A DNA stretch of 55,195 nucleotides from a virus (taxonomy: Duplodnaviria; Caudoviricetes). A program made the translations under genes and the position numbers. Where the stretch lies: IMG/VR virus record IMGVR_UViG_3300037124_000033, positions 1-55,195 of that record, one strand, 5' to 3'. Under the pieces are notes generated by a model. The model searched no databases and was not told the DNA's origin. It was given only the letters and a program-made list of their open reading frames with translations. How positions within the stretch are numbered: the first letter of the stretch is position 1; every line of letters begins with the position of its first letter. Shown here piece by piece: positions 1-49,180 of the stretch.

Positions 1-131
1 ATTTATCGTAGAGACCAGCTATCACTGCGGTCGTAGCAATATCATTGTCAGCTGTTTGTATCGAATCGTTCACACACTCAAGTGCTGTAATACCTGCACG
101 TGTCCACTCCTCCTTAGCCGCGCAATTCATC
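1..131. repeat. Terminal direct repeat, copy 1 (circular overlap with 55065-55195)
   Basis: 1-131 equals 55065-55195 except position 5 (A) vs 55069 (G); 6-131 is an exact 126-bp match. Confidence 0.97.
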
Positions 132-748
132 TGTCGCGGACAGTATCGACAAGCGTCATAGCTCGGGCCATACTGGTTTGGCTCGGCAACCTGCCCAATC
201 AACTCTTCTTGTAGCCGGTCAAGGTCTTCGTTACGAAACTTGTGGATACGAACCTCACCGATCCGCACCCAGACCTCTGCGCCAAGTATGTAACCACGAT
301 CTGGCATGCCATGCTCAGCACGCAATAGATAGGCGTAGCTACGAATTTGATTCGGATGTTCCGATGGCGACCAACCGAACTTCCAATCGAGCACGGCGTG
401 GCCGGTCACACTGACGAGATCCGATGTGCCGCGTAGAGTGATTTCGTCTGATAGATCGGCAGCCATATGGCATTCGCAGTTTGGGGTTGGATACCACTTT
501 GCAAGCTCTTCCCACGCCTCGCTAGCTCGCCGAGCCATGCCATCCAACACATCTGGGTCGACGCTATATCTGTCGGCTACTTGTTCAATCGTTGGGCCAG
601 TGCCAGTAACAGATCTCGGCATACATGCGTGGCCAGCTGTACCTTCAACCGCCTCTGGGTTATTCGGCGAATATGGCGCATCAGTTGGAATGAGGCTTCC
701 GGCACATTGTAGCGCACGGTCGGTCGAGCTGCATCTTATGGTGATCAT
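1..748 (-). CDS. Cas4-like PD-(D/E)XK exonuclease (DUF2800-like), 5' part; continues across the junction to 54715
   Basis: My translation from ATG 748: MITIRCSSTDRALQCAGS...EAVEGTAGH...ACRYCPRQMNC. One N-terminal Cys plus CxxCxxxxxC fits a Cas4/AddB Fe-S staple. In frame with the 54715..55194 ORF; about 365 aa in total. Confidence 0.8.
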   Translation of the reverse strand, partial: MITIRCSSTDRALQCAGSLIPTDAPYSPNNPEAVEGTAGHACMPRSVTGTGPTIEQVADRYSVDPDVLDGMARRASEAWEELAKWYPTPNCECHMAADLSDEITLRGTSDLVSVTGHAVLDWKFGWSPSEHPNQIRSYAYLLRAEHGMPDRGYILGAEVWVRIGEVRIHKFRNEDLDRLQEELIGQVAEPNQYGPSYDACRYCPRQMNCAAKEEWTRAGITALECVNDSIQTADNDIATTAVIAGLYDK

Positions 749-750
749 AA

Positions 751-951
751 TCAGTCCTCTATGCCTTCCACCTTGGTGCTCGCATGAGTTAGGAGTTCCA
801 TATAATCAAGAATATCCGTATCACCGTTATCCAAGCTTTGCTGTTCTGCCGCAGCGCATTCGTGGATGGTCTTAGCACCATTATAGTATTTATCATACTT
901 GGATGGATCAACATCAATAGTCATTGTCACAACGAATCTAAGCTTTGGCAT
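751..951 (-). CDS. Hypothetical protein (66 aa)
   Basis: AAGGA RBS; packed between the TasA-like and Cas4-like genes. Confidence 0.7.
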   Translation of the reverse strand: MPKLRFVVTMTIDVDPSKYDKYYNGAKTIHECAAAEQQSLDNGDTDILDYMELLTHASTKVEGIED

Positions 952-1882
952 TGTTGCTTTCCTTGTTGTTTAATGCGTGCCATTCTTCCCAGAGATCGCG
1001 GATCAAAAGTTTTTCCGTATAGCGCTTTGCTCTGTTGTGCGCATGGGCCTTAGTCATCTTCTTATCGCGCTTAAGCTCGTACGCTTTCCTCGTATCATAT
1101 ATGCGTCGATACTCACCAGCGTCTTCGCCCTTACCTTGGGATTTGATTATGCAGTCCCCCAGTGTCCACACAGCAGACCGCCTGGTTGGAGAATAGCCCA
1201 TCTCGATGGCGAGCTCTCTGTCAAGCGTCTTGCACTGTCGTTTGCCCCTAATGACTGCAAGCCCTAGCCGCTTCCACACTTTGGCTGGATTGGCGTACAG
1301 AGACAAGTCACCAGTCTCACCGATGATGCATGCCAGATTTGTGCGCCCAAACCCCTTTACAGTATCTACCCATGAGCAGACAGGAAGCTTGGCAGCGAGC
1401 TTTGTCATGTCCGCACGAAGCACTTTTTCCGAACGCTCGATTGTATCACGAGCGTTGAACATTGGCTTGCACCAAAGGTAAGCCTTGGTGGCACTGCCGT
1501 GATGGTGTTCAAGTTCCTCATGGCCACCAAGGCTTACATCGGCAGCAGCAATATGTTGGGAATCACTCTCCTGGTGGCTGCCAATACCTTTGTGAATCTT
1601 GCAGATCTTCTTATAGAGATCGTCCGCGCGTTTCAATCCCTTCTTGTCGTTCTTCCCCTTGACGTCGACAAACCTCCGACAGACAGCCTTGATACGATTC
1701 GTCAGTGCTGTTTTTATGCGGACTAGATCATTCCGCTGCGCTTTTAGCTCGCGCAACGTTTCGCAGATAGGACCGAGTCCGCCGGCATAATTGGTTTGGG
1801 TATCATTGGCAAGGTGGCCAACGGACTCGGATTGAGCAGACATTCCTTCCATGGGCCTCACTGGTTTTTTGGTCTTGCTCAT
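938..1882 (-). CDS. TasA-like Nop-domain RNA-guided DNA-binding protein (related to the IS110/IS116 C-terminal domain; no nuclease domain)
   Basis: Coiled coil (LRELKAQRNDLVRIKTALTNRI), then VKGFGRTNLACIIGETGDLSLYANPAKVWKRLGL and HAHNRAKRYTEKLLIRDLW. No N-terminal DEDD RuvC, no HNH, no IS110 catalytic SG loop. GAGGA RBS; TIGR-like units flank and interrupt it. Confidence 0.85.
   Translation of the reverse strand: MSKTKKPVRPMEGMSAQSESVGHLANDTQTNYAGGLGPICETLRELKAQRNDLVRIKTALTNRIKAVCRRFVDVKGKNDKKGLKRADDLYKKICKIHKGIGSHQESDSQHIAAADVSLGGHEELEHHHGSATKAYLWCKPMFNARDTIERSEKVLRADMTKLAAKLPVCSWVDTVKGFGRTNLACIIGETGDLSLYANPAKVWKRLGLAVIRGKRQCKTLDRELAIEMGYSPTRRSAVWTLGDCIIKSQGKGEDAGEYRRIYDTRKAYELKRDKKMTKAHAHNRAKRYTEKLLIRDLWEEWHALNNKESNNAKA
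1478..1537 (-). ncRNA. TIGR-like stem-loop guide unit 5 (inside the TasA-like CDS)
   Basis: GTAAGCCTTGGTGG-CCA-TGAGGAACT-TGAACACCA-TCACGGCAG-TG-CCACCAAGGCTTAC; perfect 15-bp stem; 60 nt = 20 codons. Confidence 0.87.
1538..1585 (-). ncRNA. TIGR-like stem-loop guide unit 4 (inside the TasA-like CDS)
   Basis: ATTGGCAG-CCA-CCAGGAGAG-TGATTCCCA-ACATATTGC-TG-CTGCCGAT; 48 nt = 16 codons. Confidence 0.85.
1773..1830 (-). ncRNA. TIGR-like stem-loop guide unit 3 (inside the TasA-like CDS, N-terminus)
   Basis: CCGAGTCCGTTGG-CCA-CCTTGCCAA-TGATACCCA-AACCAATTA-TG-CCGGCGGACTCGG; 14-bp stem with 2 G-U pairs. Confidence 0.85.
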
Positions 1883-1905
1883 ATCTTTCCTCGCTCGTAG
1901 TGGTT

Positions 1906-1953
1906 CTGGCAGGCACGGTCAGTTTGGTTAACAGAGCCGGTATGGCCTGCCAG
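1906..1953 (-). ncRNA. TIGR-like stem-loop guide unit 2 (intergenic)
   Basis: CTGGCAGG-CCA-TACCGGCTC-TGTTAACCA-AACTGACCG-TG-CCTGCCAG; 9-bp stem. Confidence 0.88.
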
Positions 1954-1957
1954 GAAT

Positions 1958-2003
1958 ATTGGAGCACGCCACGAATGGGTAACATCACCTCTTTGGCTCC
2001 AAT
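1958..2003 (-). ncRNA. TIGR-like stem-loop guide unit 1 (intergenic)
   Basis: ATTGGAG-CCA-AAGAGGTGA-TGTTACCCA-TTCGTGGCG-TG-CTCCAAT; 8-bp closing stem. Confidence 0.88.
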
Positions 2004-2527
2004 TACTTCGATACTTCCCTCATGAACCGCTTCAGATCCGTTTCGGTAAAAACTTCGGAAACAGGTCTATCGTCTGGCATGCCATCTGCGATGGCTGCTA
2101 GCCATTGCCCACGCCTTGCTTTGCTCTTAGCAACACGATCGTATGACGCTGCGGTCGCAAGCACATCGCCCTTCATGGCCGACCCAAGTGGTAATCCATC
2201 CAATAAACGGAAGTCCATCAATGAAGCCGCCGCATGCCTTAGCCGTTTACCTCGCTGGTCTTGTTGGATTGGCTTCTTCTCTTTCTTCTCTTTCTTCTTG
2301 CCATGCTCTTTGATTTTGATTGGGACATAGTCATCGATGGCTTGCTGACAAGCTTGGCGAAGGAACGGATCAGTCAATAGCCGCCAGAGTAGCTTGTCTT
2401 TGCGAGCGGCATCCTCAAGGAATGAGACCGCAGTTTGGCTATCTCTTGTCTTCTCTATTGCTTCTGAAACGGAGCGTTTCAGGAAGACCATGTTTGAGTT
2501 TTCAGTTGTACCATCCCGCATTGCCAT
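2003..2527 (-). CDS. Hypothetical protein directly upstream of the guide units (candidate Tas-associated protein)
   Basis: 174-aa basic, helical-looking ORF whose stop codon overlaps the first base of unit 1; start uncertain. Confidence 0.7.
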   Translation of the reverse strand: MAMRDGTTENSNMVFLKRSVSEAIEKTRDSQTAVSFLEDAARKDKLLWRLLTDPFLRQACQQAIDDYVPIKIKEHGKKKEKKEKKPIQQDQRGKRLRHAAASLMDFRLLDGLPLGSAMKGDVLATAASYDRVAKSKARRGQWLAAIADGMPDDRPVSEVFTETDLKRFMREVSK

Positions 2528-2539
2528 CTCACGGTAAAG

Positions 2540-2590
2540 CTGCTTGACTGGTGGTCGCCACTATAGCACCCAAGACCACCAGTCAGGCAG
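2540..2590. other. 17-bp inverted repeat/hairpin in the leader of the leftward operon
   Basis: CTGCTTGACTGGTGGTC (2540-2556) pairs with GACCACCAGTCAGGCAG (2574-2590), one non-Watson-Crick pair. Confidence 0.7.
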
Positions 2591-2656
2591 ACTTACTGCC
2601 ATTTCAAAAAACATGTGCACCTAATTCATCCTGACTCCTTTCGTCTCAATTTCAGA

Positions 2657-2794
2657 CACTGTGGCCCACCAGACATCTAGTGTCAAGCACAAAATTCGAC
2701 AGACACCATCTATATATACGTTCGTGCTAGCATGTAGTAGCTCTTTGTCTTTTTTTATTGGTGCTTGACAAACGAATCTAAGTGTGTCTAAATA
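2657..2794. promoter_or_regulatory. Divergent sigma70-type promoter region
   Basis: Leftward TTGACA-17-CACAGT (about 2686->2658); rightward TTGACA at 2765-2770 with TAAATA near 2789; separates the leftward TasA/recombination genes from the rightward HTH-ParB-helicase genes. Confidence 0.6.
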
Positions 2795-2813
2795 TGCACC
2801 ACAGGAGGATGAG

Positions 2814-3023
2814 ATGAGTCTGAAAAAAATGGGCGAGGCAGTCAGAAGCACTCGGGAGATGAGAAAACTCTCTATCAGAGAGTTAGCAAGGCGCGCGGAC
2901 ACAAATCCAAATACGATTCTCAATCTTGAAAAGACTGGAGAAGTCACAGTCAAGACGCTGCTGAAAGTGGCAAAAGCGCTGAAGGCCAAGGCAAGCGATT
3001 TCCTATACGTAGGTGAGAGGTGA
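2814..3023 (+). CDS. XRE/Cro-family HTH regulator
   Basis: LSIRELARRADTNPNTILNLEKTG..TLLKVAKALK; GGAGG RBS before ATG 2814. Confidence 0.9.
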   Translation: MSLKKMGEAVRSTREMRKLSIRELARRADTNPNTILNLEKTGEVTVKTLLKVAKALKAKASDFLYVGER

Positions 3024-3026
3024 ACG

Positions 3027-3995
3027 ATGGAAAAACGCAAGACAATGATCGTCAATCCAAAGGATCTCATCCCACCGAAGGGACACGTAATCGATCGGGA
3101 CCTCGTAAACTCGATCGCCGAGTCGATTCCGAAATGTGGCCTACGTCAGCCGATTGTCGTAGTTGGGCGCCACATCAAGCATGGTGTCCATCGCTGGGCG
3201 GCAGTGTGCGAACTCGGGCTCAACCGCGTCGAAGTGATCGTTGACGAAAAGGTCGAGACTGGTGAGGAGCACGACGCTCAGGTGATCGTCGAAAATCTCT
3301 GTCGGCGCCACTACAAGGGGTCAGAGTTGGATGCCATGCGAAAAAAGCTTGTGGACCTGTGGGCGCCTCAGATCGCCCAGGAGATGCAAGATTCGAAAAA
3401 ATCCCCTGACGGGGGGGAATCAGAATTAGAACCCAAGAAGTCTCCTGGGAGGAAGAAGACTCCAAAAGGAGAAGCTATTCGTCAGGTCGCAAAGCAAACA
3501 GGCGCGACGGAAAAAGCAGTACAGAGGTCCGTCGAGAAAACGAAGGCAGCCGAAGCCGGCGTCACTCCCAAGCAGCCCGACGATCCACCACCACCCGATG
3601 AGCCCGAGGCAACCATCGACGACTACGACAATGAAATCCCCGAGAGCGAGGGTGATCGGTGGGGCAAAACCAAGGCGCTGTTTTACGATATCAATACCAT
3701 AATGCGAGGCGTACAACTCAAGCTCACTGAGATCGAAAAACTCAACGGCATCCCGAAGTCAGTCGCGGCCGATCTCCACAAGCGCGCACAGCAATTCGCT
3801 GAGCTAGCCTGGAACTATCGCCCAGTAGCTCTGTGCGAGTGGTGCAACGGCACGGGCAAGAATCCAGGCAACACCAATGATTGCCCCCATTGTGTAGGGG
3901 TTGGATTCATTGCCGAGGTGAATTACGATCCACAAAAGAAGCCCGCTACAGCTGAGAAGGAGCCATCTTTTACCGAAGACGATTTGGATTGGTGA
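3027..3995 (+). CDS. ParB-N-domain protein with HTH and C-terminal CxxCxGxG zinc finger
   Basis: SIAESIPKCGLRQPIVV..IKHGVHRWAA, ENLCRRH, AIRQVAKQTGATEKAVQRS, CEWCNGTG..CPHCVGVG. Confidence 0.8.
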   Translation: MEKRKTMIVNPKDLIPPKGHVIDRDLVNSIAESIPKCGLRQPIVVVGRHIKHGVHRWAAVCELGLNRVEVIVDEKVETGEEHDAQVIVENLCRRHYKGSELDAMRKKLVDLWAPQIAQEMQDSKKSPDGGESELEPKKSPGRKKTPKGEAIRQVAKQTGATEKAVQRSVEKTKAAEAGVTPKQPDDPPPPDEPEATIDDYDNEIPESEGDRWGKTKALFYDINTIMRGVQLKLTEIEKLNGIPKSVAADLHKRAQQFAELAWNYRPVALCEWCNGTGKNPGNTNDCPHCVGVGFIAEVNYDPQKKPATAEKEPSFTEDDLDW

Positions 3996-4003
3996 GGTAA
4001 AGG

Positions 4004-4627
4004 ATGCACTTCGTAGAGGAGCTCAAGAAAATCAACGCGTGTGAAGACGCGATCGAATGGTGCGAGACACAGCCGGATCTAGAAACGGCTTGGCGTGTCT
4101 GTACACGCGGCGACTGGATGCTTTGGCTGGCTGGTAAGCTATCTGGTCCTCCTGGAGACGGTCGGAAACAACTGGTGGCGTGCGCGATGGAAGTAGCAAT
4201 GCTTGCTCGGCAGTATGCGTCGCCAGATGTACAGACGGCCATGGACCGGTGCGAGAGAGCGGTGTCTTCGTGGGCGGATGGGAGATGCACGTTTGAGGAT
4301 GTACGACGTGCCACGGCCTACATTGCCTACTATGACAACGCCGCCAACACTGCTAATATTTATGCCTACTACGCTGGCGATGCGAGCTACGTACCCAGCG
4401 CCGCCTACTACGCTGTTCGCGCCGTCTACTATGCTATCCGTACCGCCGTCGACACCATCTCTTTTGCCAACATCGCCTTCTCCGCCAATGCCAGCGCCTA
4501 CTATGTCGCTGCCAGCGCCTACGCAGCCGCAGACCACGACTATGCCGCAAAAACAAAAACTCTATCGCTAGCCGCTGACATCGTGCGCTGGCACTATCAA
4601 ATCAGTCCTGAATTTCCAGTGAGTTAA
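4004..4627 (+). CDS. Phage protein with Ala/Tyr-rich low-complexity C-terminus
   Basis: N-terminal ACEDAIEW..AWRVCTRGDWMLWL followed by a degenerate GCC/TAC codon tract at 4316-4546. Confidence 0.8.
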   Translation: MHFVEELKKINACEDAIEWCETQPDLETAWRVCTRGDWMLWLAGKLSGPPGDGRKQLVACAMEVAMLARQYASPDVQTAMDRCERAVSSWADGRCTFEDVRRATAYIAYYDNAANTANIYAYYAGDASYVPSAAYYAVRAVYYAIRTAVDTISFANIAFSANASAYYVAASAYAAADHDYAAKTKTLSLAADIVRWHYQISPEFPVS

Positions 4628-4643
4628 GCCAAGGTCGGCAACC

Positions 4644-6353
4644 ATGACCTCGCAAATCAATCTCTTCAATACATCTGCTGGCAAGCCTGAGCAGCTACCA
4701 GAGCCTGAGATTTTCCAACCATCTCAACAACTACGCGACTATCAGATCGAGGCGATCGAGGCGGTCGAAAAGGAGCTGCAAGAGAATCGAGGAACGCTCG
4801 TTCTGATTCCCACCGGCGGAGGCAAAACCCAAGTGGCATGCGAACTCATCCGCAGGTCCTCGGGTAGGTGTCTGTTCGTAGCACACCGTGACGAGCTTAT
4901 TCAGCAAGCTGCCAACCGCATCGAGCAATTTACCGGCGAGTGGCCTGACATCGAGCAGGCACAAGCAAAGGCCGATGCTCGAGGTGGTAAGCATGTAGTC
5001 GCGTCTATCCAAACACTCAGTCGTAGCAGACGTTTGGATAGATGGGATCCAGGTGAGTTTTCCCTCATCGTCATAGACGAGGCACACAGATCTATTGCGA
5101 AGACGTATAAAAAGATAATCAACTACTTCGAAGGGAAGATAATCGGGCTGACTGCAACCCCAGACCGACTAGACAAGGAGTCACTCGGTCAGGTGATGGA
5201 TTCAGTCGCGTACCGGTACGAAATCAACGACGCGATTCGGGATGGCTGGCTGTGCAACATCACCATGAAGACTATCCGAGTCGAGTCAATGGATTTTTCG
5301 AAGATCCACACCGTTGCCGGGGACTTCAACCAGGGCGAGCTAGAGCAGCTCATGCAGCTCGAACAGAATCTGCATGCGGTAGCCAAGCCAACTGTCGAGT
5401 GTGCGGGTGACCGAAAGACGATCGTATTCACAACGTCGGTTGCCCACGCCGAGCGCTTGGCCGAAATCATCGATAGGTATGCCGGCAAGCAAGCATCTAT
5501 GGTCATCCATGGCGGAACCCCAAAAGAAAAACGCAGACAGTTGCTCAGAGAATTCGACAAGGGGAAGTGGCAGTATTTCGTAAACGTGCAGATCGCAACA
5601 GAAGGATTCGACCAGCCAGACGTTTCATGTATAGTCGTCGGTCGTCCCACAAAGAGTCGCTCACTTCATTGCCAGATGATTGGGCGGGGGACTCGAGGTG
5701 GCGAGCGTTGTAGGGTTGGAGAAAAGAAAGATTGTCTTGTCCTAGACTTCGTCGGCAACTCCGGCAAACACGAGCTCGTTTGCACTGCCGATATCCTCGG
5801 CGGCAACGTCTCCCCCGAAGAACTCGAAGAGGCCAAGAAGCTGATCGAGAAGTCCGACAAGCCGAAGACAATAGACGAAGCCGTTGAAGAAGCCAAGGCC
5901 AAGATCGCACACGATCTGAGTGAATCCGCAAAGCGTCGACGGGCCAGTATCGTTGGCGACGTCGAGTACGACGTGAAGGACTTCAACCCCTTCACCATGT
6001 TTCGCGTCAAGCGGGATTACCTCAGCGAGAGGTATGGGATTGCTCCAGCTACAGAAAAGCAAATGCGGGCAATCGCTAAATGGATGGGCAAGCACGGAAA
6101 GCATGCTCCGGTGAATCTGTCGAAGCATGAGGCATCGAAGCTCCTCGCCGAGTTTGCTGGTCGACGAGAAAAGGGCCTAGCTACGTATGGACAGGTGAAA
6201 TTCCTTGCGACGAAAAAGCTAGACGCGCGCGGCTGGACCTTTCACCAGGCGAGTCAAGTGATTACGTGGTGCTCCAGGAATGGATGGAGAAATCCTCCGC
6301 CAAGTGTGGTAGCATCAATCACCAGAGGTCGAGAGCCAGGAGAAGAGGGATGA
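4644..6353 (+). CDS. Superfamily II DEAH helicase (ResIII/Irc3-like)
   Basis: LRDYQ, PTGGGKT, DEAH, TATP, TEGFDQP, QMIGRGTR motifs. Confidence 0.95.
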   Translation: MTSQINLFNTSAGKPEQLPEPEIFQPSQQLRDYQIEAIEAVEKELQENRGTLVLIPTGGGKTQVACELIRRSSGRCLFVAHRDELIQQAANRIEQFTGEWPDIEQAQAKADARGGKHVVASIQTLSRSRRLDRWDPGEFSLIVIDEAHRSIAKTYKKIINYFEGKIIGLTATPDRLDKESLGQVMDSVAYRYEINDAIRDGWLCNITMKTIRVESMDFSKIHTVAGDFNQGELEQLMQLEQNLHAVAKPTVECAGDRKTIVFTTSVAHAERLAEIIDRYAGKQASMVIHGGTPKEKRRQLLREFDKGKWQYFVNVQIATEGFDQPDVSCIVVGRPTKSRSLHCQMIGRGTRGGERCRVGEKKDCLVLDFVGNSGKHELVCTADILGGNVSPEELEEAKKLIEKSDKPKTIDEAVEEAKAKIAHDLSESAKRRRASIVGDVEYDVKDFNPFTMFRVKRDYLSERYGIAPATEKQMRAIAKWMGKHGKHAPVNLSKHEASKLLAEFAGRREKGLATYGQVKFLATKKLDARGWTFHQASQVITWCSRNGWRNPPPSVVASITRGREPGEEG

Positions 6354-10703: not shown

Positions 10704-11062
10704 AGAGCATCTATATCGCAGGGCCATTCAGGGGAGAGACGCCATGGGACGTCGAGACCAATATCCGCAATGCGGAGACCTTTGGTCTGTATGTAGCCCA
10801 ACTCAACGCCATCCCACGAATCCCCCATACCATGTACCGATTCTTTGACGGCTCGCTGCCGGACGATTTTTGGTTGGAAGCAGCCATGAGTCTGTTGCGG
10901 ACTTGCGACGCAATCTTGCTGATTCCTGGGTGGGGTCGCTCAAGCGGCTCCAAGGCTGAAAAGGCTGAGGCCGAGAGATTGGGCAAGAAGGTGCTGTACA
11001 GTGTGGCTGAGGTCGAGGAGTGGCTCGATAGCATGGTGGAAGATAGCGAGGCGGTGTGGTAG
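10700..11062 (+). CDS. DUF4406/nucleoside 2-deoxyribosyltransferase-like protein
   Basis: IYIAGPF, CDAILLIPGWGRSSGSKAE. Confidence 0.85.
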   Translation: MKSIYIAGPFRGETPWDVETNIRNAETFGLYVAQLNAIPRIPHTMYRFFDGSLPDDFWLEAAMSLLRTCDAILLIPGWGRSSGSKAEKAEAERLGKKVLYSVAEVEEWLDSMVEDSEAVW

Positions 11063-15578: not shown

Positions 15579-15669
15579 ACCAGTCTTGTATTCCCGCCCC
15601 CATTGGGGGATTTTTCCGAATCTTGCATCTCCTGGGCGATCTGAGCAACACCTACATCCACCTACACGT

Positions 15670-24741: not shown

Positions 24742-25482
24742 GTGGTTAGGAAAGTGAAGCTTCCATCAGACAAGCCGCTCAGTCGGGAGATGGAGCTCGA
24801 GCTGGCGAAGAGATACAAAGAGACAGGAGATAGGCTCGCTGCCCATAGGTTGATTCTGTCGAATACGGGGATGGTGCACAAAGTGGCGCATAGATTCAAG
24901 CGCTACAAGGTGCCGTTTGCCGATTTGGTGCAAGAAGGATACAAGGGGGTGATGCACGGTTTGAAGAAGTTTGACCCCGATAAAGGCTACAGACTGGCAA
25001 CCTACGTCTCGTGGTGGATCCGAGCGTATATGACAAAGTTTATTATCAACCAATGGTCCATCGTGAGATTTGGCACGACACAAGAGCAGAGGGTTTCGTT
25101 TTTCAAGTATCAACGAGGCGACCTCCCAAAAGACGATACTGAGATTAGATTGGCCATGGGGGATTTTCATTTAGATGCCCCATTGTCTGATTCGTCATTG
25201 TTGACCCATATGGATATGCTGAGGTGTGATTCGGCAGAGCCTGACGAGGAAGCGACACTCAATGAAACGCACTTGATATTGAGGTCCACGATCGCAGACA
25301 TGCTAGACTCGATGAGTAGGCACGAGAGGATGTTGATCAGATACAGATTTCTGACTCACAATCCATGGCCGCTAGATAAACTGGCAAAGAAACTAGGCAT
25401 CTCTCGTCAGCGTTTGCATCAAGTCGAAGTGCGGTTAAAGAAAAAACTCAGAGAGCGTCTTGTGCTGGAGGGGTTGGGGTGA
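24742..25482 (+). CDS. RpoH (sigma32)-like RNA polymerase sigma factor
   Basis: DLVQEG..KFDPDKGYRLATYVSWWIRA, RpoH-box-like WSIVRFGTTQEQRVSFF, region 4 LGISRQRLHQVE. Confidence 0.9.
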   Translation: MVRKVKLPSDKPLSREMELELAKRYKETGDRLAAHRLILSNTGMVHKVAHRFKRYKVPFADLVQEGYKGVMHGLKKFDPDKGYRLATYVSWWIRAYMTKFIINQWSIVRFGTTQEQRVSFFKYQRGDLPKDDTEIRLAMGDFHLDAPLSDSSLLTHMDMLRCDSAEPDEEATLNETHLILRSTIADMLDSMSRHERMLIRYRFLTHNPWPLDKLAKKLGISRQRLHQVEVRLKKKLRERLVLEGLG

Positions 25483-26438: not shown

Positions 26439-27008
26439 ATGAGTTTCAACAACAAAAATCCCAAAGAGAAAGACAGCTCTCGGCTGAATGCGCGTCGAGA
26501 GAAGTTCTGCGAAGAGATCGTAAAGGGCAAAAGCGGGAAGGATGCCGCCATTGCGGCGGGGTACGCGCCTAGGAATGCTAACAAGTACGCATCTGATCTA
26601 CTACTAAACACAGCGGTTGCGGGCAGAATCAGAGACATGAAGGCGTGCTCGGCGGCAATTGCCGAAGTGGAAGGATCTGACATCGTTCGTGAGTGGGCGA
26701 GGCTTGGGTTCTCCAATATACTTGATGTTGCCGAAGTCGTCGATGGGAAGCTTGTCGTCAAGCCATCTAGCGAATGGCCGAAGGCTGCTGCGCGCGCCGT
26801 TATGGCGGTAACTCAATCCAACGGTAAAGTGCAAGTCAAGATGCATCCTAAGCAAGCAGCTCTCGATTCGATGGGTAGATATTTTGGTCTGTTGACCGAG
26901 CGCCGCAGGAACGAGCTCACTATTGCCGACGGCGAGCCGATGGGTGGGCGTGTTGTTGTTACCTTTGTTGGGGGTAACAACGGCGAGGGTGATGACGGTC
27001 AACATTGA
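26439..27008 (+). CDS. terS: Terminase small subunit
   Basis: EKFCEE..DAAIAAGYA..A...LL; position before TerL. Confidence 0.9.
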   Translation: MSFNNKNPKEKDSSRLNARREKFCEEIVKGKSGKDAAIAAGYAPRNANKYASDLLLNTAVAGRIRDMKACSAAIAEVEGSDIVREWARLGFSNILDVAEVVDGKLVVKPSSEWPKAAARAVMAVTQSNGKVQVKMHPKQAALDSMGRYFGLLTERRRNELTIADGEPMGGRVVVTFVGGNNGEGDDGQH

Positions 27009-28230
27009 GATACCTGAGAAACTCCAGTTTCTATTTGAGCCAAAACGATATAAGGTAGTTTACTCTGGGCGAGGCGCGGGCAAGTCATGGTCCTTTGCTC
27101 GTGTTCTCTTGATCAAGGCAATGGAGAAGCCTCTACGCGTTTTGTGCACGCGTGAGCTGCAGAAATCGATCCGCGAATCGGTACACAAGATATTGAGTAA
27201 ACAGATAAAAATGTTGGGGTTGGGCAATTTCTTTGAGATCCAGAGGACAGTTATCACTGGTAGAAATGGATCTGAATTCATATTCGATGGGTTGAGCGGG
27301 AACATTAACGCGATTCAGTCATATGAGGGTATAAACGTATGCTGGGTAGAAGAAGCACAATCTATCAGCGAATTGAGTTGGGAAATATTGATACCAACGA
27401 TTCGAGAGGAAGGTTCTGAAATATGGGTTAGCTTCAACCCAAATCAAAAAGACGACCCAACTTATAAGATGTTTGTGGCTAATCCCCCGCCTAAGGATGA
27501 AGCTACTGTAGCAAGAATTAGCTGGAGGGATAACAAATGGTTCCCAGAAGCACTCCGTCGCCATCGTAAATACCTATTCAGCGTGGACCCAGAAACTGCT
27601 GCGCATGTGTATGAAGGCGAGACTATACAACGCTCAGCCGCACAGGTCTACAAAGACAAGTGGGTCGTTGAAGCATTCACTCCAGGAGAGGACTGGGCTG
27701 GCCCATACCAGGGGGCCGACTGGGGGGCAGTCCATCCGACTACACTGATTAGATCCTGGGTATACGATGACACCCTATGGATTGAGTATGAAGTGTACTG
27801 TCTTGGTATAGACCTCGACAGTCTTCCGGACAAATTTGACAAAATCCCAAAGGCTCGGCAATACACTACTAGGGCAGATAGTGCGCGTCCCGAAACCATC
27901 AGATACATGAACAACCACGGGTACCCGTTAATTATAGCTGCTCAAAAGTGGCCTGGGTCAGTGGAGGATGGGATAGCGCACATCAGGAGCTACAAGCGGA
28001 TCGTAGTCCACCCAAGGTGCGAACACACTATTGATGAACTTAGGCTGTACTCGTACAAAGTTGTTCAGAAGACAGGCGATGTGTTGCCAGACATTGTCAA
28101 GCTTCACGACGACTGCTTGGACGCTGTTCGTTATGCGTTAGCTCCACTCATCAAAAGCCAAGAGTTTGCGATCGATCCATACATGATGCAACCTGAGCAG
28201 GACAACGAGTGGGAGTCTCATTACTCTTGA
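26992..28230 (+). CDS. terL: Terminase large subunit (PBSX family)
   Basis: SGRGAGKS Walker A, RELQKSIRES, WVEEA, SFNP, ADSARPE, DDCLDAVRY. Confidence 0.96.
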   Translation: MTVNIEIPEKLQFLFEPKRYKVVYSGRGAGKSWSFARVLLIKAMEKPLRVLCTRELQKSIRESVHKILSKQIKMLGLGNFFEIQRTVITGRNGSEFIFDGLSGNINAIQSYEGINVCWVEEAQSISELSWEILIPTIREEGSEIWVSFNPNQKDDPTYKMFVANPPPKDEATVARISWRDNKWFPEALRRHRKYLFSVDPETAAHVYEGETIQRSAAQVYKDKWVVEAFTPGEDWAGPYQGADWGAVHPTTLIRSWVYDDTLWIEYEVYCLGIDLDSLPDKFDKIPKARQYTTRADSARPETIRYMNNHGYPLIIAAQKWPGSVEDGIAHIRSYKRIVVHPRCEHTIDELRLYSYKVVQKTGDVLPDIVKLHDDCLDAVRYALAPLIKSQEFAIDPYMMQPEQDNEWESHYS

Positions 28231-29508: not shown

Positions 29509-31130
29509 TGAGTGTCAATGATGACATGCTTGATGTTGAGACTCTTGAGGATCTAGGTAGTCAGGGCTTTCAACGCTATGGCCGTATAGTCGATGATGAG
29601 TTCGATCCTAATCTGCAAGGATCGAAAGCCATGCGGATGTGGCGGGAGATGGGCGACAATGATCCACTTATCGGCGGCGCACTCAGAGGCATGAAACTAC
29701 TCATCAGGCAAGCACCATGGGTGCCAAAACCAGCTGATGTTAAGAAAGCTGTTGAGGCCGGATATGGCACAAAAGAGAGCTGCGAAAGAGAGGCTAATTC
29801 CTGGAAGGATAGACTCGAAGAATCCATGTATGACATGGAAGTTTCTTGGAGGCAAATCGTCGATGAGCTTATGTCGGCCTTTCAGTACGGGTTCTGTCTC
29901 ATGTGGATCAAATATAAAATCCGCAGAGGAGACAATCAGTCAAAGTATTTCAACAGTCAGTTTGACGATGGATTGTGGGGATGGAGATCTTGGGAGATCC
30001 GCAGACAAGATACCATCGAGGGGTGGATCTATGACGAGACAGACGAGACACTTGTCGCCGCTGAGCAGCTAGCTCCGCCAAACTACAAGCTAGCTAAACT
30101 TCCGATGCACAGGTTGATCCATCTTAGATTTGAAACGTCTGGCGGAAACCCCATGGGAAGGAGTGGTTTGAGGAACAGCTACAGACCGTACTTTTTTGGC
30201 AACAAGAAGGAAGAGATCGAGGGTGTTGGTATATACCGGGATCTTGTTGGATACCCGGTTATGGAAGTTCCTCAGCGTATCATGAGTAAGGCCGCAAACG
30301 CCGACGAGAAAGCCACAAGGACATATCTATTCGATGTAGTTAGAAAGATAAAGCGAGACCAACTAGAAGGAGCTCTAATACCATCGGAAGACAACCCTGA
30401 TGGAACCAAGACAGGATTCAAATTCCGACTGATGAGCTCTGGTGGATCTAGGGCAATCGATATAGATAAAAGCATTGTCAGAAACAGAATAGACAAGTTG
30501 ATTCCGCTACTGTGGGAATTTGCGTTGCTGGGTAATCTAGAGACTGGCAGTAGAGCAGTTGCGTCAGACAAGACAACGATGACTGCGATAGCCTTAGGCG
30601 CATTGATGGACATGATAGTGGAAACTGTAAACAATAGCGCCGTGGCAAGATGGTGCCGACTAAACAATGTTCCAAGAATGCTTTGGCCTGAACTTTCACA
30701 CGGTGATATCGAGAAAGAAAATATCCTCGAGTGGATCAACAGTGTTGCTGCTGCGGCTAATGGCGGCTTGATTGTAGCTACTGACAAGGATGAAGAGGAA
30801 GCTAGAGAAAGGCTTGGTCTTAGTCAACGCGCGCCAGAGGACACTGTTTTGCCTCAGCCACAAAATGGACAAGATATGTTTGGTGGTAGCTACTCGCTAC
30901 AGCCAGTCGAACAAATTGATGATGAAGACGATATTGAAGATAATGATGAAAGTGAAGAGGAAGTATCAGAAATGATGACTGTAGAGGAGGCCGAGAAGAA
31001 ATGGGGAGTCCCTCGAAAGAAGATTATGAGAGCAATCCGGACAGGGAAGTTTCCTGGTGGAAAAATGGGAAACACGTATCTGATACCGCGAGAGGAAGCA
31101 AAACTATTCTTCAGTCAGACAAACACGTAG
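29505..31130 (+). CDS. Portal protein (Mu gp29/DUF935-like) with C-terminal excisionase-like HTH
   Basis: YGFCLMWI, GNPMGRSGLRNSY, GSRAVA; tail MMTVEEAEKKWGVPRKKIMRAIRTGKFPGGKMGNTYLIP. Confidence 0.85.
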   Translation: MMSVNDDMLDVETLEDLGSQGFQRYGRIVDDEFDPNLQGSKAMRMWREMGDNDPLIGGALRGMKLLIRQAPWVPKPADVKKAVEAGYGTKESCEREANSWKDRLEESMYDMEVSWRQIVDELMSAFQYGFCLMWIKYKIRRGDNQSKYFNSQFDDGLWGWRSWEIRRQDTIEGWIYDETDETLVAAEQLAPPNYKLAKLPMHRLIHLRFETSGGNPMGRSGLRNSYRPYFFGNKKEEIEGVGIYRDLVGYPVMEVPQRIMSKAANADEKATRTYLFDVVRKIKRDQLEGALIPSEDNPDGTKTGFKFRLMSSGGSRAIDIDKSIVRNRIDKLIPLLWEFALLGNLETGSRAVASDKTTMTAIALGALMDMIVETVNNSAVARWCRLNNVPRMLWPELSHGDIEKENILEWINSVAAAANGGLIVATDKDEEEARERLGLSQRAPEDTVLPQPQNGQDMFGGSYSLQPVEQIDDEDDIEDNDESEEEVSEMMTVEEAEKKWGVPRKKIMRAIRTGKFPGGKMGNTYLIPREEAKLFFSQTNT

Positions 31131-32733: not shown

Positions 32734-34395
32734 ATGGCGACCGTTCCAGCATTTGAACAGGATGTCAAGATAATCCCTGGTTATCTGTCCGGTGAAGATC
32801 TTTCGTCATACCAGTATTGTGCTGTCAAATTGTCGAGTGGCGCTGTTGTCAAGTGCGACACTCTTGGCGAGACGCCGTTTGGTATTCTGCAAAACGCTCC
32901 AGATGCGGCTGACAAGGCTACCTCTCCAGGTTATGCAGGAATCAGCAGAGTCAAACTTGGCGGCACTGTTTCGCAGCTCAATCGTCTGGTCACTGGTGCA
33001 TCAGCTACGCTGGTAGCTAGGACTGACCCCGACGAAGTTGCCGTCGCCATTGCGTTGTCCGATGGAGTGACTGGCGATATCATCCCGGCGATTCTTGTGC
33101 TCGGAACAGACAGCACCGCAATTGCAGAGAGGGCTCTAGCGAGTGGCTACCTATGGGTCGGCAACGCTAGCGGTGAAGCTGCGGCGGTCGCCATGAGTGG
33201 CGACGCCACGATCACAAACGCTGGTGTTATCACCGTAGCCGATGTGACTGTTGGTAGCGATGCGGCTGGAGATATCCTCTACAAGAGTTCTCCAACCGCT
33301 CTCGCACGCCTCGCCAAAGGAACGGCTGCTCAGCTACTTGCAATGAACGGTGGGGCAACGGCTCCGGAGTGGATTGACCAATCTGCCGTTACTCCAGGCT
33401 CACCCACCAACGTGTCGACGACCAGCGCCGGAGATGCGGCTGGCGACCTGTTGTATCGGGATGCGGCCGATACCATCGAACGGCTAGCCAAAGGAACCGC
33501 CAACGATCTGCTCCAACAGGGCGGATCCGATGCTCCGCAGTGGGCTACGATCTCCGGGGATGCCACCATTGCTGATGGTGGAGCGGTAACGGTTACCGAC
33601 GTCACGGTTGGTTCAGATGCCGCTGGAGACCTTCTGTACAAGTCGAGCGCTACCGCGCTAGCCAGGCTTGCCAAGGGGACCACTGCCGATCTTCTCCAGC
33701 AAAGTTCCGGCGATGCTCCGCAATGGGCAACGATGTCAGGCGATGCGACGATTGCTGACGGGGGCGCCATCACTGTCACGGATGTCACCGTGGGTTCGGA
33801 CGCCACCGGTGACATCCTTTACAAGAGTTCCGCAACAGCTCTTGCGAGACTCGGCGAGGGCACCGCAAACGACATCCTGCAGCAAGGCGGTTCCAACGCG
33901 CCTCAGTGGGCGACTGTCTCGGGTGATGCGACTATCGCCGATGGTGGGGCACTCACTCTCAGCAAGAATCTTATCAGGACGACTACTGTCGAGATTGCTG
34001 CTGCGGCCGTCAAGACGCTGAACGCAACACCGGTTGTCCTCGTAGACTTCTCGGCTTTGGTTTCCTCGGGGGAAGCCGCATCGGGTGATGCCATAATCTT
34101 TCATGGGGCCATTCTGAACATCTACGGTGGGGCTGCGAGCTACGACAACAACGAGAACACCACGATCGTCTATCAAACCGCCGGCGGTGGAGCTACGGTG
34201 TCATTGACTCTTGCCAACTTTTTCAATGGGGGGGCAGACGGAGCGCTCACCACATTGAAGCCGATCGCAACGGATGTCGCGCCAGATACCGATGAGGATT
34301 TGGTGATCAAGTCCAGTGCATCTCCGTACAGTGCGCAGGGCGACCGCAATCTGTACGTTCAAGTGTTTTACAGCATCTTCACACCGCATGCGTAA
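32734..34395 (+). CDS. Capsid decoration protein extended into a head fibre
   Basis: N-terminal cement-like domain (GILQNAP..VKLGGTV..AIALSDG.GDIIPA) followed by 61-aa repeats. Confidence 0.75.
   Translation: MATVPAFEQDVKIIPGYLSGEDLSSYQYCAVKLSSGAVVKCDTLGETPFGILQNAPDAADKATSPGYAGISRVKLGGTVSQLNRLVTGASATLVARTDPDEVAVAIALSDGVTGDIIPAILVLGTDSTAIAERALASGYLWVGNASGEAAAVAMSGDATITNAGVITVADVTVGSDAAGDILYKSSPTALARLAKGTAAQLLAMNGGATAPEWIDQSAVTPGSPTNVSTTSAGDAAGDLLYRDAADTIERLAKGTANDLLQQGGSDAPQWATISGDATIADGGAVTVTDVTVGSDAAGDLLYKSSATALARLAKGTTADLLQQSSGDAPQWATMSGDATIADGGAITVTDVTVGSDATGDILYKSSATALARLGEGTANDILQQGGSNAPQWATVSGDATIADGGALTLSKNLIRTTTVEIAAAAVKTLNATPVVLVDFSALVSSGEAASGDAIIFHGAILNIYGGAASYDNNENTTIVYQTAGGGATVSLTLANFFNGGADGALTTLKPIATDVAPDTDEDLVIKSSASPYSAQGDRNLYVQVFYSIFTPHA
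33193..33960 (+). repeat. Tandem 183-nt (61-aa) intragenic repeats
   Basis: SGDATIADGGA.TVTDVTVGSDA.GD.LYKSSATALARL..GT..D.LQQ...APQWAT; unit starts at 33550, 33733, 33916. Confidence 0.9.
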
Positions 34396-46224: not shown

Positions 46225-47280
46225 ATGGTCAATCTAGCCTTATTGCTTGCTATCACTTTGCCTTCACAACCAAATCCGCCTGGTGGCGGGTACGGCATTT
46301 TTACTCCATCCGGCCCACATAATCTAGCTGGAGAATGTCTGTATTTCCACCAGGAGAGTGACTCGGATACATACCTGTGTCGCACTGGCGCCGACGAAGT
46401 CACATTGACAATCGGTGGGGCTGCGGAGATCGTCTGCGACGCTAGCTATTGCACTTTCTCATCCGGCCCCATGATCGGCAGTTCTATCCCATTTGCTGAT
46501 GCAGCTGGTACTTTGACACTGCAAAACGTTGACGCTCTAGATGCCACCACACTCGCTACTGTCATCGCAGCTATTAGCAGCAATGGTTCCGAGTACGATG
46601 ATGACGTGGCAGTGTGCTGGGGCGACGACGATGATTTTTGTATCGAGCACGATACGGATGGTTCACCAGATGGCCTGCGGCTCACTCAGGCGGACTGTGA
46701 TGGATCGCCGTGCGATCCGTTGAAGTTCTATAAGGACGGTGGGAATCCGTACGTATCTTTCGCTGGTACAGCAGCATTACTTATCCCATCCGGCACAGTA
46801 TCGATACCAGCAATTGTATTTGCAGCTGATAACGACGGTACAGGTACAGGTATCTATAGGTCTGGTGCGGACAATGTTGGAATAGTTGCAAATAATTCTC
46901 TCCGGTTTAATGTGGCGTACTCTATAGTCAAGTCATACACCCGGACTATCATTGATGGGCAAATAGTAATATCAGCAGATAAAGATACTATTAATGATAC
47001 AGGGAATGGTGATCCAGGGGCACACACCTTGACCCCAACTAAATCGTATGTCGAATTGACATGTAATGATGGGGATGGGTGCAACATAACAATTGGTGAG
47101 TCTGGTGTATATGAGGGGGAGATGGTAAGTATTACGAATGTCGGAACAAATGTATGTAATTTCTCTGACTCACCAGGGGTTAGCGAGTTGTCCGGAGCAT
47201 TTGCAATGGGGCAATACGATGTATTAATGTTAGTTTATGATGGTACAACGTGGATTGAGGCTTCCAGGAGTGATAACTAA
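46225..47280 (+). CDS. Tail fibre-like protein
   Basis: GTVSIPAIVF..DGTGTGIYRSGADNVGIV; C-terminal LVYDGTTWIE. Confidence 0.7.
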   Translation: MVNLALLLAITLPSQPNPPGGGYGIFTPSGPHNLAGECLYFHQESDSDTYLCRTGADEVTLTIGGAAEIVCDASYCTFSSGPMIGSSIPFADAAGTLTLQNVDALDATTLATVIAAISSNGSEYDDDVAVCWGDDDDFCIEHDTDGSPDGLRLTQADCDGSPCDPLKFYKDGGNPYVSFAGTAALLIPSGTVSIPAIVFAADNDGTGTGIYRSGADNVGIVANNSLRFNVAYSIVKSYTRTIIDGQIVISADKDTINDTGNGDPGAHTLTPTKSYVELTCNDGDGCNITIGESGVYEGEMVSITNVGTNVCNFSDSPGVSELSGAFAMGQYDVLMLVYDGTTWIEASRSDN

Positions 47281-48575: not shown

Positions 48576-49180
48576 GATTGATCCATGATCCAGGACATGG
48601 CGGGCACAACCGAGGGCTTCAATACGCTGGATTCGTCGAACGGAGTTGGGTGATTGATTTCGGCCACCTACTCATGGACAGACTCTCCAGCCTGTGCGAA
48701 TACCAGTGCATGGCTAGGACATCTGACGATTACATTCGCTACACTGTACGAGCTCGTAGAGCTGTTGAGTGGAAGGCCGATCTAGCTTTTCTGCATCATG
48801 TCAACGGATTGTTCTACGGGCAAGACCACCACAGGGCTGGGCAAGGCAATCCTCACGGCAGCGGGACGATCTGTTTTGTCGTGCCTGAGGATGAGCTCTC
48901 CCATTGCGTAGCTGAAGCTTTGATCAAAGGTCTGCCGAAAGAACTGTGGAGACAGAAAGACTATCTGATTACAGCTAGTCCGAATGACTGGACGAAGAAT
49001 GCCTACGGGCATCTTAGCCACTACACTAGCAGAGGGATTCCAGCGGTTCTGATCGAGTGGGGATTCGCTACAAACGATGCTGATCGTAGAGCATTGCAAA
49101 ACGACAAGGTTCGTGATGGAATGGCTAAGGCTGCGGCCGAGGCTGTTTTGAGGTTTAAGGAGTTGACATGCAAAAGCTAA
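48572..49180 (+). CDS. Endolysin, N-acetylmuramoyl-L-alanine amidase (Amidase_3)
   Basis: DPGHGG, E, HHVN, PAVLIEWGFATNDAD. Confidence 0.9.
   Translation: MRLIHDPGHGGHNRGLQYAGFVERSWVIDFGHLLMDRLSSLCEYQCMARTSDDYIRYTVRARRAVEWKADLAFLHHVNGLFYGQDHHRAGQGNPHGSGTICFVVPEDELSHCVAEALIKGLPKELWRQKDYLITASPNDWTKNAYGHLSHYTSRGIPAVLIEWGFATNDADRRALQNDKVRDGMAKAAAEAVLRFKELTCKS

Follow-up and report, generated by a model that had tools for sequence, protein, structure and literature searches.

A stem-loop TIGR array adjoining and inside the tasA gene of a tailed phage from wetland metagenomes

The DNA analyzed here is IMG/VR virus record IMGVR_UViG_3300037124_000033, a tailed-phage record of about 55 kb that is present in wetland metagenome runs (X1-X5); its whole stretch of 55,195 bases is called the window below. 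Positions 1475-2003 of the minus strand hold a genuine stem-loop TIGR array, which adjoins the gene tasA (938-1882, minus strand) and continues inside it. Read on the minus strand, each unit of the array consists of a stem arm, a CCA box, a 9-nt spacer A, a TG box, a 4-nt loop, a second CCA box, a 9-nt spacer B, a second TG box and the other stem arm. An original prediction, made from the sequence alone, had listed five such units as TIGR-Tas guides. The five spacer pairs are present at the place given for them, and units extracted by script agree with that list. All ten CCA boxes and all ten TG boxes are intact in these five units, and the palindromic arms form from 7 to at least 14 pairs. 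The list was nevertheless incomplete, since a sixth unit over the start of tasA (1831-1882) had been overlooked. With this unit included, the pattern CCA-N9-TG-N4-CCA-N9-TG occurs on the tas strand in six of six units.

All six units are on the minus strand: two precede tasA, one overlaps its start, and three fall within the reading frame, in parts that are disordered in the protein model. The outermost unit, U1 (1958-2003, core 1965-1996), has a 7-bp stem and carries the spacers AAGAGGTGA / TTCGTGGCG; its predicted fold has an energy of -15.1 kcal/mol and a z score of -2.1 against shuffles. Unit U2 (1904-1955, core 1914-1945), also upstream of tasA, carries TACCGGCTC / AACTGACCG and has a stem of 8 contiguous pairs (9/10 with one mismatch) and a fold z score of -4.9. 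Over the tasA start lies the probable unit U6 (1831-1882, core 1841-1872), with a one-bulge stem, the spacers AAAAACCAG / TGGAAGGAA and a weak fold z score of -1.6. Its counterpart in a relative phage, G001, at 32767-32798 of that genome, is conserved in position, boxes and arms. Within the N-terminal part of the tasA frame, U3 (1773-1830, core 1786-1817) has a 13-bp stem, the spacers CCTTGCCAA / AACCAATTA and a fold z score of -5.2. Unit U4 (1536-1587, core 1546-1577) corresponds to the loop that links the coiled coil of the protein to its Nop domain and carries CCAGGAGAG / ACATATTGC; its 10-bp stem includes G-U pairs, and its fold z score is -1.7. Also inside tasA, U5 (1475-1540, core 1492-1523) carries TGAGGAACT / TCACGGCAG and has a stem of at least 14 pairs, the arms being an inverted repeat of 15 nt with 100% complementarity (fold z score -4.4).

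All five units of the original prediction fold as hairpins with the outer stem intact, at z scores from -1.7 to -5.2. The flanking stems are variable yet palindromic and differ in sequence from unit to unit; conserved edge repeats are absent, and a repeat search of window positions 1-5000 found no tandem or direct repeat family. When the stem requirement was dropped, a scan of both strands of the window for the core pattern returned seven matches, all of them on the minus strand, namely the five units, U6 and one stemless, out-of-register overlap at 1896-1927. No further strict unit with at least five stem pairs was found on either strand of the whole window. A loose unit-like match lies on the plus strand in the small-terminase region (26714-26745), with CAA and CGA boxes, a 4-nt loop and 8/9 stem pairs; as these boxes are unlike those of the array, it is probably a chance match. 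In an Rfam search of the array region nothing reached threshold, the best E-values being 0.27 and 0.53.

The tasA open reading frame (ORF) encodes 314 residues from its first ATG, while the protein call in the collection has 304 residues and starts from the ATG at 1852. Its product has a coiled coil and a Nop domain. A Pfam search of the 304-314-residue protein returned only a weak Transposase_20 match (E 0.016) and no HNH or RuvC nuclease family, and the label given by PHROGs is 'transposase'. A profile of 27 homologs (alignment A1) matches TIGR-TasR (9mty) with an E-value of 6e-22 and TasH with 2e-5. The AlphaFold model, with a mean predicted local distance difference test score (pLDDT) of 87.7, shows a helical coiled coil followed by the Nop domain, and in a Foldseek comparison with the PDB it ranks TasR and TasH at the top and the IS621 and ISCro4 recombinases after them. 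Because a nuclease domain is absent, the protein is TasA. The profile and fold matches of this neighboring protein, together with the published boxes (box C is CCA and box D is UG in Faure 2025), support the identification of the units as TIGR-Tas guides.

In the 304-residue form, pLDDT falls below 50 at residues 96-100 and 105-111, and the low-confidence stretches of the TasA model as a whole are residues 1-25, encoded by U6/U3, and residues 93-111, encoded by U4 and the beginning of U5. This agrees with a statement in the Xu 2026 preprint that intragenic stem-loop tigRNAs sit in disordered protein segments. Units U3-U5 are translated in frame as part of tasA, and both the first codons of the gene and its candidate start codons fall within U6. 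The ATG at 1852 is made of the last base of the second CCA box and the first two bases of U6 spacer B, and another candidate ATG is made of the last base of U6 spacer B and box D; the same arrangement is seen in G001. In alignment A1, Gly-His and Ser-His dipeptides that resemble a translated stem-plus-CCA recur in the variable N-terminal tails of many Tas homologs. Judging from these tails, ORF-embedded units may be common in this Tas clade.

Relatives of the TasA protein, with 42% identity at best, are encoded in 57 bacterial loci, mostly of Alphaproteobacteria. Strict cores number 221 on the tas strand of these loci, as against 3 on the other. A stem of at least five contiguous pairs flanks 169 of the 221 tas-strand cores, compared with 6% when the arms are paired at random, and none of the three opposite-strand cores. 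At least one unit is held by 38 of the 57 loci, often as part of long arrays outside the gene, as against 0.05 units per 57 loci after the letters of the loci were shuffled. These strand, stem-pair and shuffle counts settle both the orientation of the units and the link of this protein clade to them. Two related loci (L213 and L214), from bacterial genomes of different species, have five guide units in common, of which three are identical and two show 1-3 base differences; guide sets can therefore be conserved across hosts.

The relative phage G001 (63198 bases) encodes a Tas protein 71% identical to that of the window, is syntenic with it in the early region at 68-87% nucleotide identity, and carries units at the same places. 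With U2 left out of the counts, its alignment being unclear, the two phages are identical at 26/72 spacer positions (36%), 39/40 box positions (97%) and 232/307 other positions (76%), a difference with a Fisher p of 8e-10; stems agree at 61/86 positions and loops at 6/16. The G001 (L003) counterpart of U3 has TCA as its first box instead of CCA and a compensatory double change from T-A to C-G in its stem; both of its spacers differ, with 2/9 and 2/9 identical positions.

Spacer changes were also seen among closer strains. Contigs of other wetland runs that are 93-97% alike show four spacer changes in U1. In runs X2 and X3, strains of the same degree of likeness (93-97%) have a wholly different U4 spacer B (1546-1556) next to 13 bases, comprising box, loop and box, that are identical. 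Judged by this pattern, the change looks like the replacement of a single spacer and not like gradual drift. In a variant about 84% alike (run X1, record 2), 108 bases (36 codons) containing U4 and U5 are skipped in frame (1494-1601), as seen among the 40 of 199 differences listed, and intragenic units therefore come and go among relatives. Homologous Tas proteins also differ in length at the U4/U5 loop.

The original prediction had taken the target of each guide to be spacer A joined to the reverse complement of spacer B, and script extraction confirmed its five 18-mers as this composite. According to Faure 2025, spacers A and B recognize opposite strands of an 18-bp site, 8-nt 3' overhangs are produced, and TaTasR tolerates gaps of 1-2 bp. 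When both half orders were worked through, 3' overhangs arose only from A followed by the reverse complement of B, so the published overhangs speak for this order. The Guan 2026 preprint places box C at the DNA unwinding junction; the spacer ends next to box C would then lie outermost in the site, which again gives the same order. The half order adopted here is thus supported as our own derivation from the published geometry of related systems.

Targets within the phage were sought for U1-U5 and U6 in four orientations (A followed by the reverse complement of B, the reverse complement of B followed by A, A followed by B, and B followed by A) with gaps of 0-30 between the halves. No site with up to two mismatches was found in the 55-kb phage, and the earlier impression that it holds no full self-target thus stands after an exhaustive search. 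Sites with three mismatches numbered 6-7 per orientation, compared with 5.8 for shuffled pairs, and no window site combined one perfect half with at least 5/9 matches in the other. Self-targeting by perfect or near-perfect sites was rejected on these counts. Isolated 9-mer matches had been noticed for CCAGGAGAG at 27682 and 49552; both are real, and a further copy at 46350 had been missed. The reverse complement of TGAGGAACT also occurs at 30266 and TCACGGCAG at 48853. Five window matches for ten 9-mers, with about 4.2 expected, are at chance level. Cross-targeting between the window and G001 was likewise rejected in both directions, the best matches having three mismatches and lying at control level, and the own guides of G001 have no targets in G001.

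Public collections were scanned with spacer A, a gap of 0-30 bases and the reverse complement of spacer B, so that gaps of 3-30 serve as controls with the same half-sites. For U1-U5, IMG/VR yielded 171 matches in 110 dereplicated families: none at gap 0, two at gap 1 and two at gap 2, while the control gaps 3-30 average 3.8 families per class. The reverse half order, scanned in IMG/VR for U1 and U2 (2/6 guides), gave no gap-0 match. In JGI metagenomes, searched with U1 (1/6 guides), matches were at background, with 3 families at gap 0 and 4, 2 and 3 at gaps 3, 6 and 9 among the matches listed; the full series for gaps 0-9, again among the matches listed, is 3, 12, 12, 4, 25, 8, 2, 14, 10 and 3. 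Across these metagenome loci (L234-L353) the counts of half-site pairs are three-base periodic by gap, with gaps 1, 4 and 7 highest. The periodicity is due to coding frames, and split-site controls should therefore use gaps of the same phase. None of the 348 loci retrieved was matched by a second guide among U1-U5.

Guides of the relatives behaved similarly. The 169 guides from related loci gave one two-mismatch match to the window and G001, compared with five for shuffled pairs, and 12 two-mismatch matches to the 57 loci, compared with 19 in controls. Six guides from four isolates, each searched at up to two mismatches against five genomes, were at background in this small sample; one own-genome match with one mismatch, in a gene for a large secreted protein, and one foreign-genome match with one mismatch were observed. 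Cultured phages gave no nucleotide match to the window, and their Tas and helicase protein matches are distant. The U1 composite was not found at up to two mismatches in five genomes that encode the best Tas relatives, nor at up to one mismatch in 201 genomes of the family of G007. Comparison with cultured phages, Tas relatives and terminase homologs did not identify the host, and no convincing natural target was found in the phage, in G001 or in the public collections searched. The hope that matches would name the host or a rival element was accordingly disappointed. The composite search against shuffled controls, which the original prediction had proposed as its check, showed no enrichment over shuffled pairings or control spacings wherever it was applied, a result that weakens the predicted targets and does not disprove them. 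Natural targets and spacer acquisition are named as open questions for TIGR-Tas in Faure 2025 and in the Xu 2026 preprint, and predicted sites with no convincing match agree with the difficulty of identifying natural targets that both papers describe.

Directly upstream of U1, a 174-residue ORF (2003-2527, minus strand) has no Pfam family; it may be co-transcribed with the array. Beyond it, the divergent intergenic region 2528-2783 separates the array operon from a helix-turn-helix (HTH) regulator gene and is likely a promoter and operator region. It contains two inverted repeats, one at 2534-2596 and one formed by 2681-2693 with 2758-2770. The second pair (2681-2770) has TTGACA-like hexamers that face outwards and probably marks operators of the neighboring HTH regulator. 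On the other strand follow genes for a Cro/CI-type HTH protein (2784-3023, plus strand) and for a ParB-N-like protein with a zinc-ribbon tail (3027-3995, plus strand); according to Faure 2025, some tasA genes have parB-like neighbors. Within the ParB-like gene, a stretch of 47 nt (3366-3412, plus strand) has a near-identical inverted copy about 12 kb away (15600-15650, minus strand) and ends in a short G/C hairpin; this duplicate could be a parS-like or regulatory site. Elsewhere in the window the phage encodes a sigma-70-type factor (24742-25482), small and large terminase subunits, a portal protein, an XkdF-type protease and an amidase. None of the window ORFs scanned was recognized as an integrase.

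We consider it very probable that the locus is a six-unit stem-loop TIGR array that serves the nuclease-less TasA, and that its guides are most likely aimed at foreign DNA, since the predicted sites are absent from the phage itself and from its sequenced relative. The targets would most likely belong to the host chromosome or to competing mobile elements and be absent from the collections searched, or not identical in them. Transcription would start in the divergent region 2528-2783 and run through the ORF at 2003-2527, the array and tasA. By analogy with the TasA systems described in the literature, the minus-strand transcript would be cut into hairpin tigRNAs by a host RNase, and a TasA dimer would hold each of them by its CCA/UG boxes. 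Spacer A would then pair with one DNA strand and spacer B, over the adjoining 9 bp, with the opposite one, giving an 18-bp site, possibly with a gap of 1-2 bp, and TasA bound at such foreign sites would block transcription with no cutting. Because U6 covers the tasA start, binding or processing by TasA at this unit could also limit its own translation. The Xu 2026 preprint raises a coupling of tigRNAs to translation in general terms, and it describes intragenic stem-loop tigRNAs and a TasA that acts as a repressor.

Several points weigh against this reading. The hairpins of U4 (z -1.7) and U6 (z -1.6) are only weakly better than shuffles, and a consensus promoter scan found no promoter. Expression, processing and DNA binding at this locus rest on analogy, and as no natural target was found, so does the guide function in its entirety. 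Spacers of L213 and L214 are no more diverged than the rest of the two loci (114/144 versus 1173/1522 identical positions, in a gappy alignment). The near-random divergence of spacers is also to be expected of weakly constrained sequence.

A more specific proposal would have the array aimed at an unrelated temperate phage family (G212/G213), as interference between phages, with U1 directed at the portal gene and U6 at the 5' part of a DNA methyltransferase gene. We regard this as unlikely. The proposal starts from the 19074-base record of G212, which carries integrase, excisionase, RecT, portal and terminase genes. Both halves of the U1 site occur exactly in its portal gene (1692-1711), 2 bp apart; gaps of 1-2 bp are tolerated by TaTasR (Faure 2025), but this tolerance is reported for TaTasR and not for TasA. 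A U6 site with one mismatch and no gap lies at 11000-11017, 58 bases into the DNA methyltransferase gene. A U2-like site and a second U1-like site, each with three mismatches and gap 1, are also present, although in the latter a mismatch falls on spacer position 5, part of the seed on our own reading of the cleavage rule of Faure 2025. Among the controls on G212, 30 shuffled pairs gave no match at up to three mismatches; three-mismatch matches per six guides came to 0.27 for random pairs and 0.36 for foreign guides; and matches with up to one mismatch were found for 0/169 foreign guides and 0/1500 random pairs (1669 in total). Over the 44 loci with an exact match at a gap of up to 2 (303 kb), the five other guides were expected to give 0.022 matches at up to one mismatch, and one was observed. 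However, the finding is post hoc and came after many looks, U6 itself having been recognized after the collection scans, which cover U1-U5 only. The six guides of G001 find nothing better than three mismatches on G212, the U1 spacer varies among co-occurring strains, and G212 and the window phage have no genes in common. The sequence matches thus make G212 a suggestive, weak lead. Were it true, one phage would be silencing another in nature by means of a nuclease-less TIGR-TasA, the swap of single 9-nt spacers from strain to strain would record an ongoing arms race, and the field would have a natural target to test. A tRNA-Leu-like stretch beside the integrase gene of G212 (L439, 4607-4715) is probably its attachment site and might reveal its host.

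It is very unlikely that the hairpins act mainly in cis within the tasA message, for instance with TasA at U6 limiting its own translation, and that most of the apparent spacers drift with no DNA targets. Such a role would fit the position of U6 over the candidate start codons, the in-frame translation of U3-U5, the near-random spacer identity between relatives and the lack of a target anywhere searched. It accounts poorly, however, for the fixed 9-nt spacers and intact boxes kept in 38/57 related loci, often in long arrays outside the gene, and for the conservation of boxes and spacer length while the spacer letters change. Published ribonucleoproteins of stem-loop TasA, moreover, bind DNA sites set by both spacers, as reported in the Xu 2026 and Guan 2026 preprints.

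A lifecycle switch in which the guides regulate genes of the phage itself at imperfect sites appears highly improbable: TasA represses transcription in reporters (Xu 2026 preprint), the array locus adjoins the HTH regulator and ParB-like genes, and U4 matches 14/18 positions at both copies of the 47-nt inverted duplicate (3377-3394 and 15618-15635), but that match is mismatched at spacer B position 5 and was taken as chance, self sites at 3, 4 and 5 mismatches are as numerous as for shuffled pairs, no self site joins a perfect half to at least 5/9 of the other, and the guides of G001 are likewise devoid of targets in G001.

A TasA-guiding array directed at foreign DNA thus remains the preferred reading, and the locus is a tidy example of an already known kind of system. 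It offers a compact test case, a near-complete phage contig with six guides of which three are translated within the effector. Its strains also provide a record of spacer change, in which close strains differ almost entirely in single spacers but agree in boxes and stems, and this bears on the question of guide renewal. For the design of target searches, the variable-gap half-site search supplies control spacings from the same scan, and it exposed a codon-phase effect that naive shuffles would miss.

Among known systems, a CRISPR array was rejected, as no family of identical 25-36-nt direct repeats is present in window positions 1-5000. Archaeal and eukaryotic box C/D sRNAs with Nop5 also have two guide segments between C-type and D-type boxes and a Nop-domain dimer. 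Here, in contrast, the boxes are CCA and UG instead of the RUGAUGA and CUGA that form a K-turn, no L7Ae or fibrillarin partner is apparent, and the target in characterized Tas systems is DNA. A box C/D sRNA was rejected on the basis of the CCA and TG boxes and the absence of any Rfam match reaching threshold. The IS110 recombinases with bridge RNA (IS621, 8wt6) have a distantly related RNA-binding domain, and their fold matches rank below those of Tas. Unlike them, the protein described here has no DEDD catalytic domain, and a tandem series of guide units takes the place of a two-loop bridge RNA. An IS110 transposase was rejected because there is no match to a DEDD (RuvC-like) family and the N-terminal part starts out disordered and continues as a coiled coil.

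The dual-repeat TasR and TasH systems (TaTasR, 9mty; SpTasH, 9w04 and others) are closer, with a homologous Nop domain, CCA/UG boxes and an 18-bp split target read by tandem spacers. However, the present system has no RuvC or HNH domain and no conserved edge or loop repeats, its guide would be a hairpin of about 50-70 nt where theirs is a 36-nt RNA, and binding is expected instead of cleavage. The closest counterparts are the stem-loop TIGR-TasA systems, namely PlTasA from Peromyscus gut (Faure 2025; Guan 2026) and BlTasA and MbTasA (Xu 2026). Like the present system, they are phage-borne and combine a nuclease-less coiled coil and Nop protein with variable palindromic stems that replace edge repeats; their units, too, occur upstream of the tas frame as well as within it, where they coincide with disordered protein segments. 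The likeness to PlTasA, BlTasA and MbTasA described here is one of features, the present locus being known from sequence alone. Within this group, it is distinguished by having six units only, a uniform 4-nt loop and one unit over the start of tasA.

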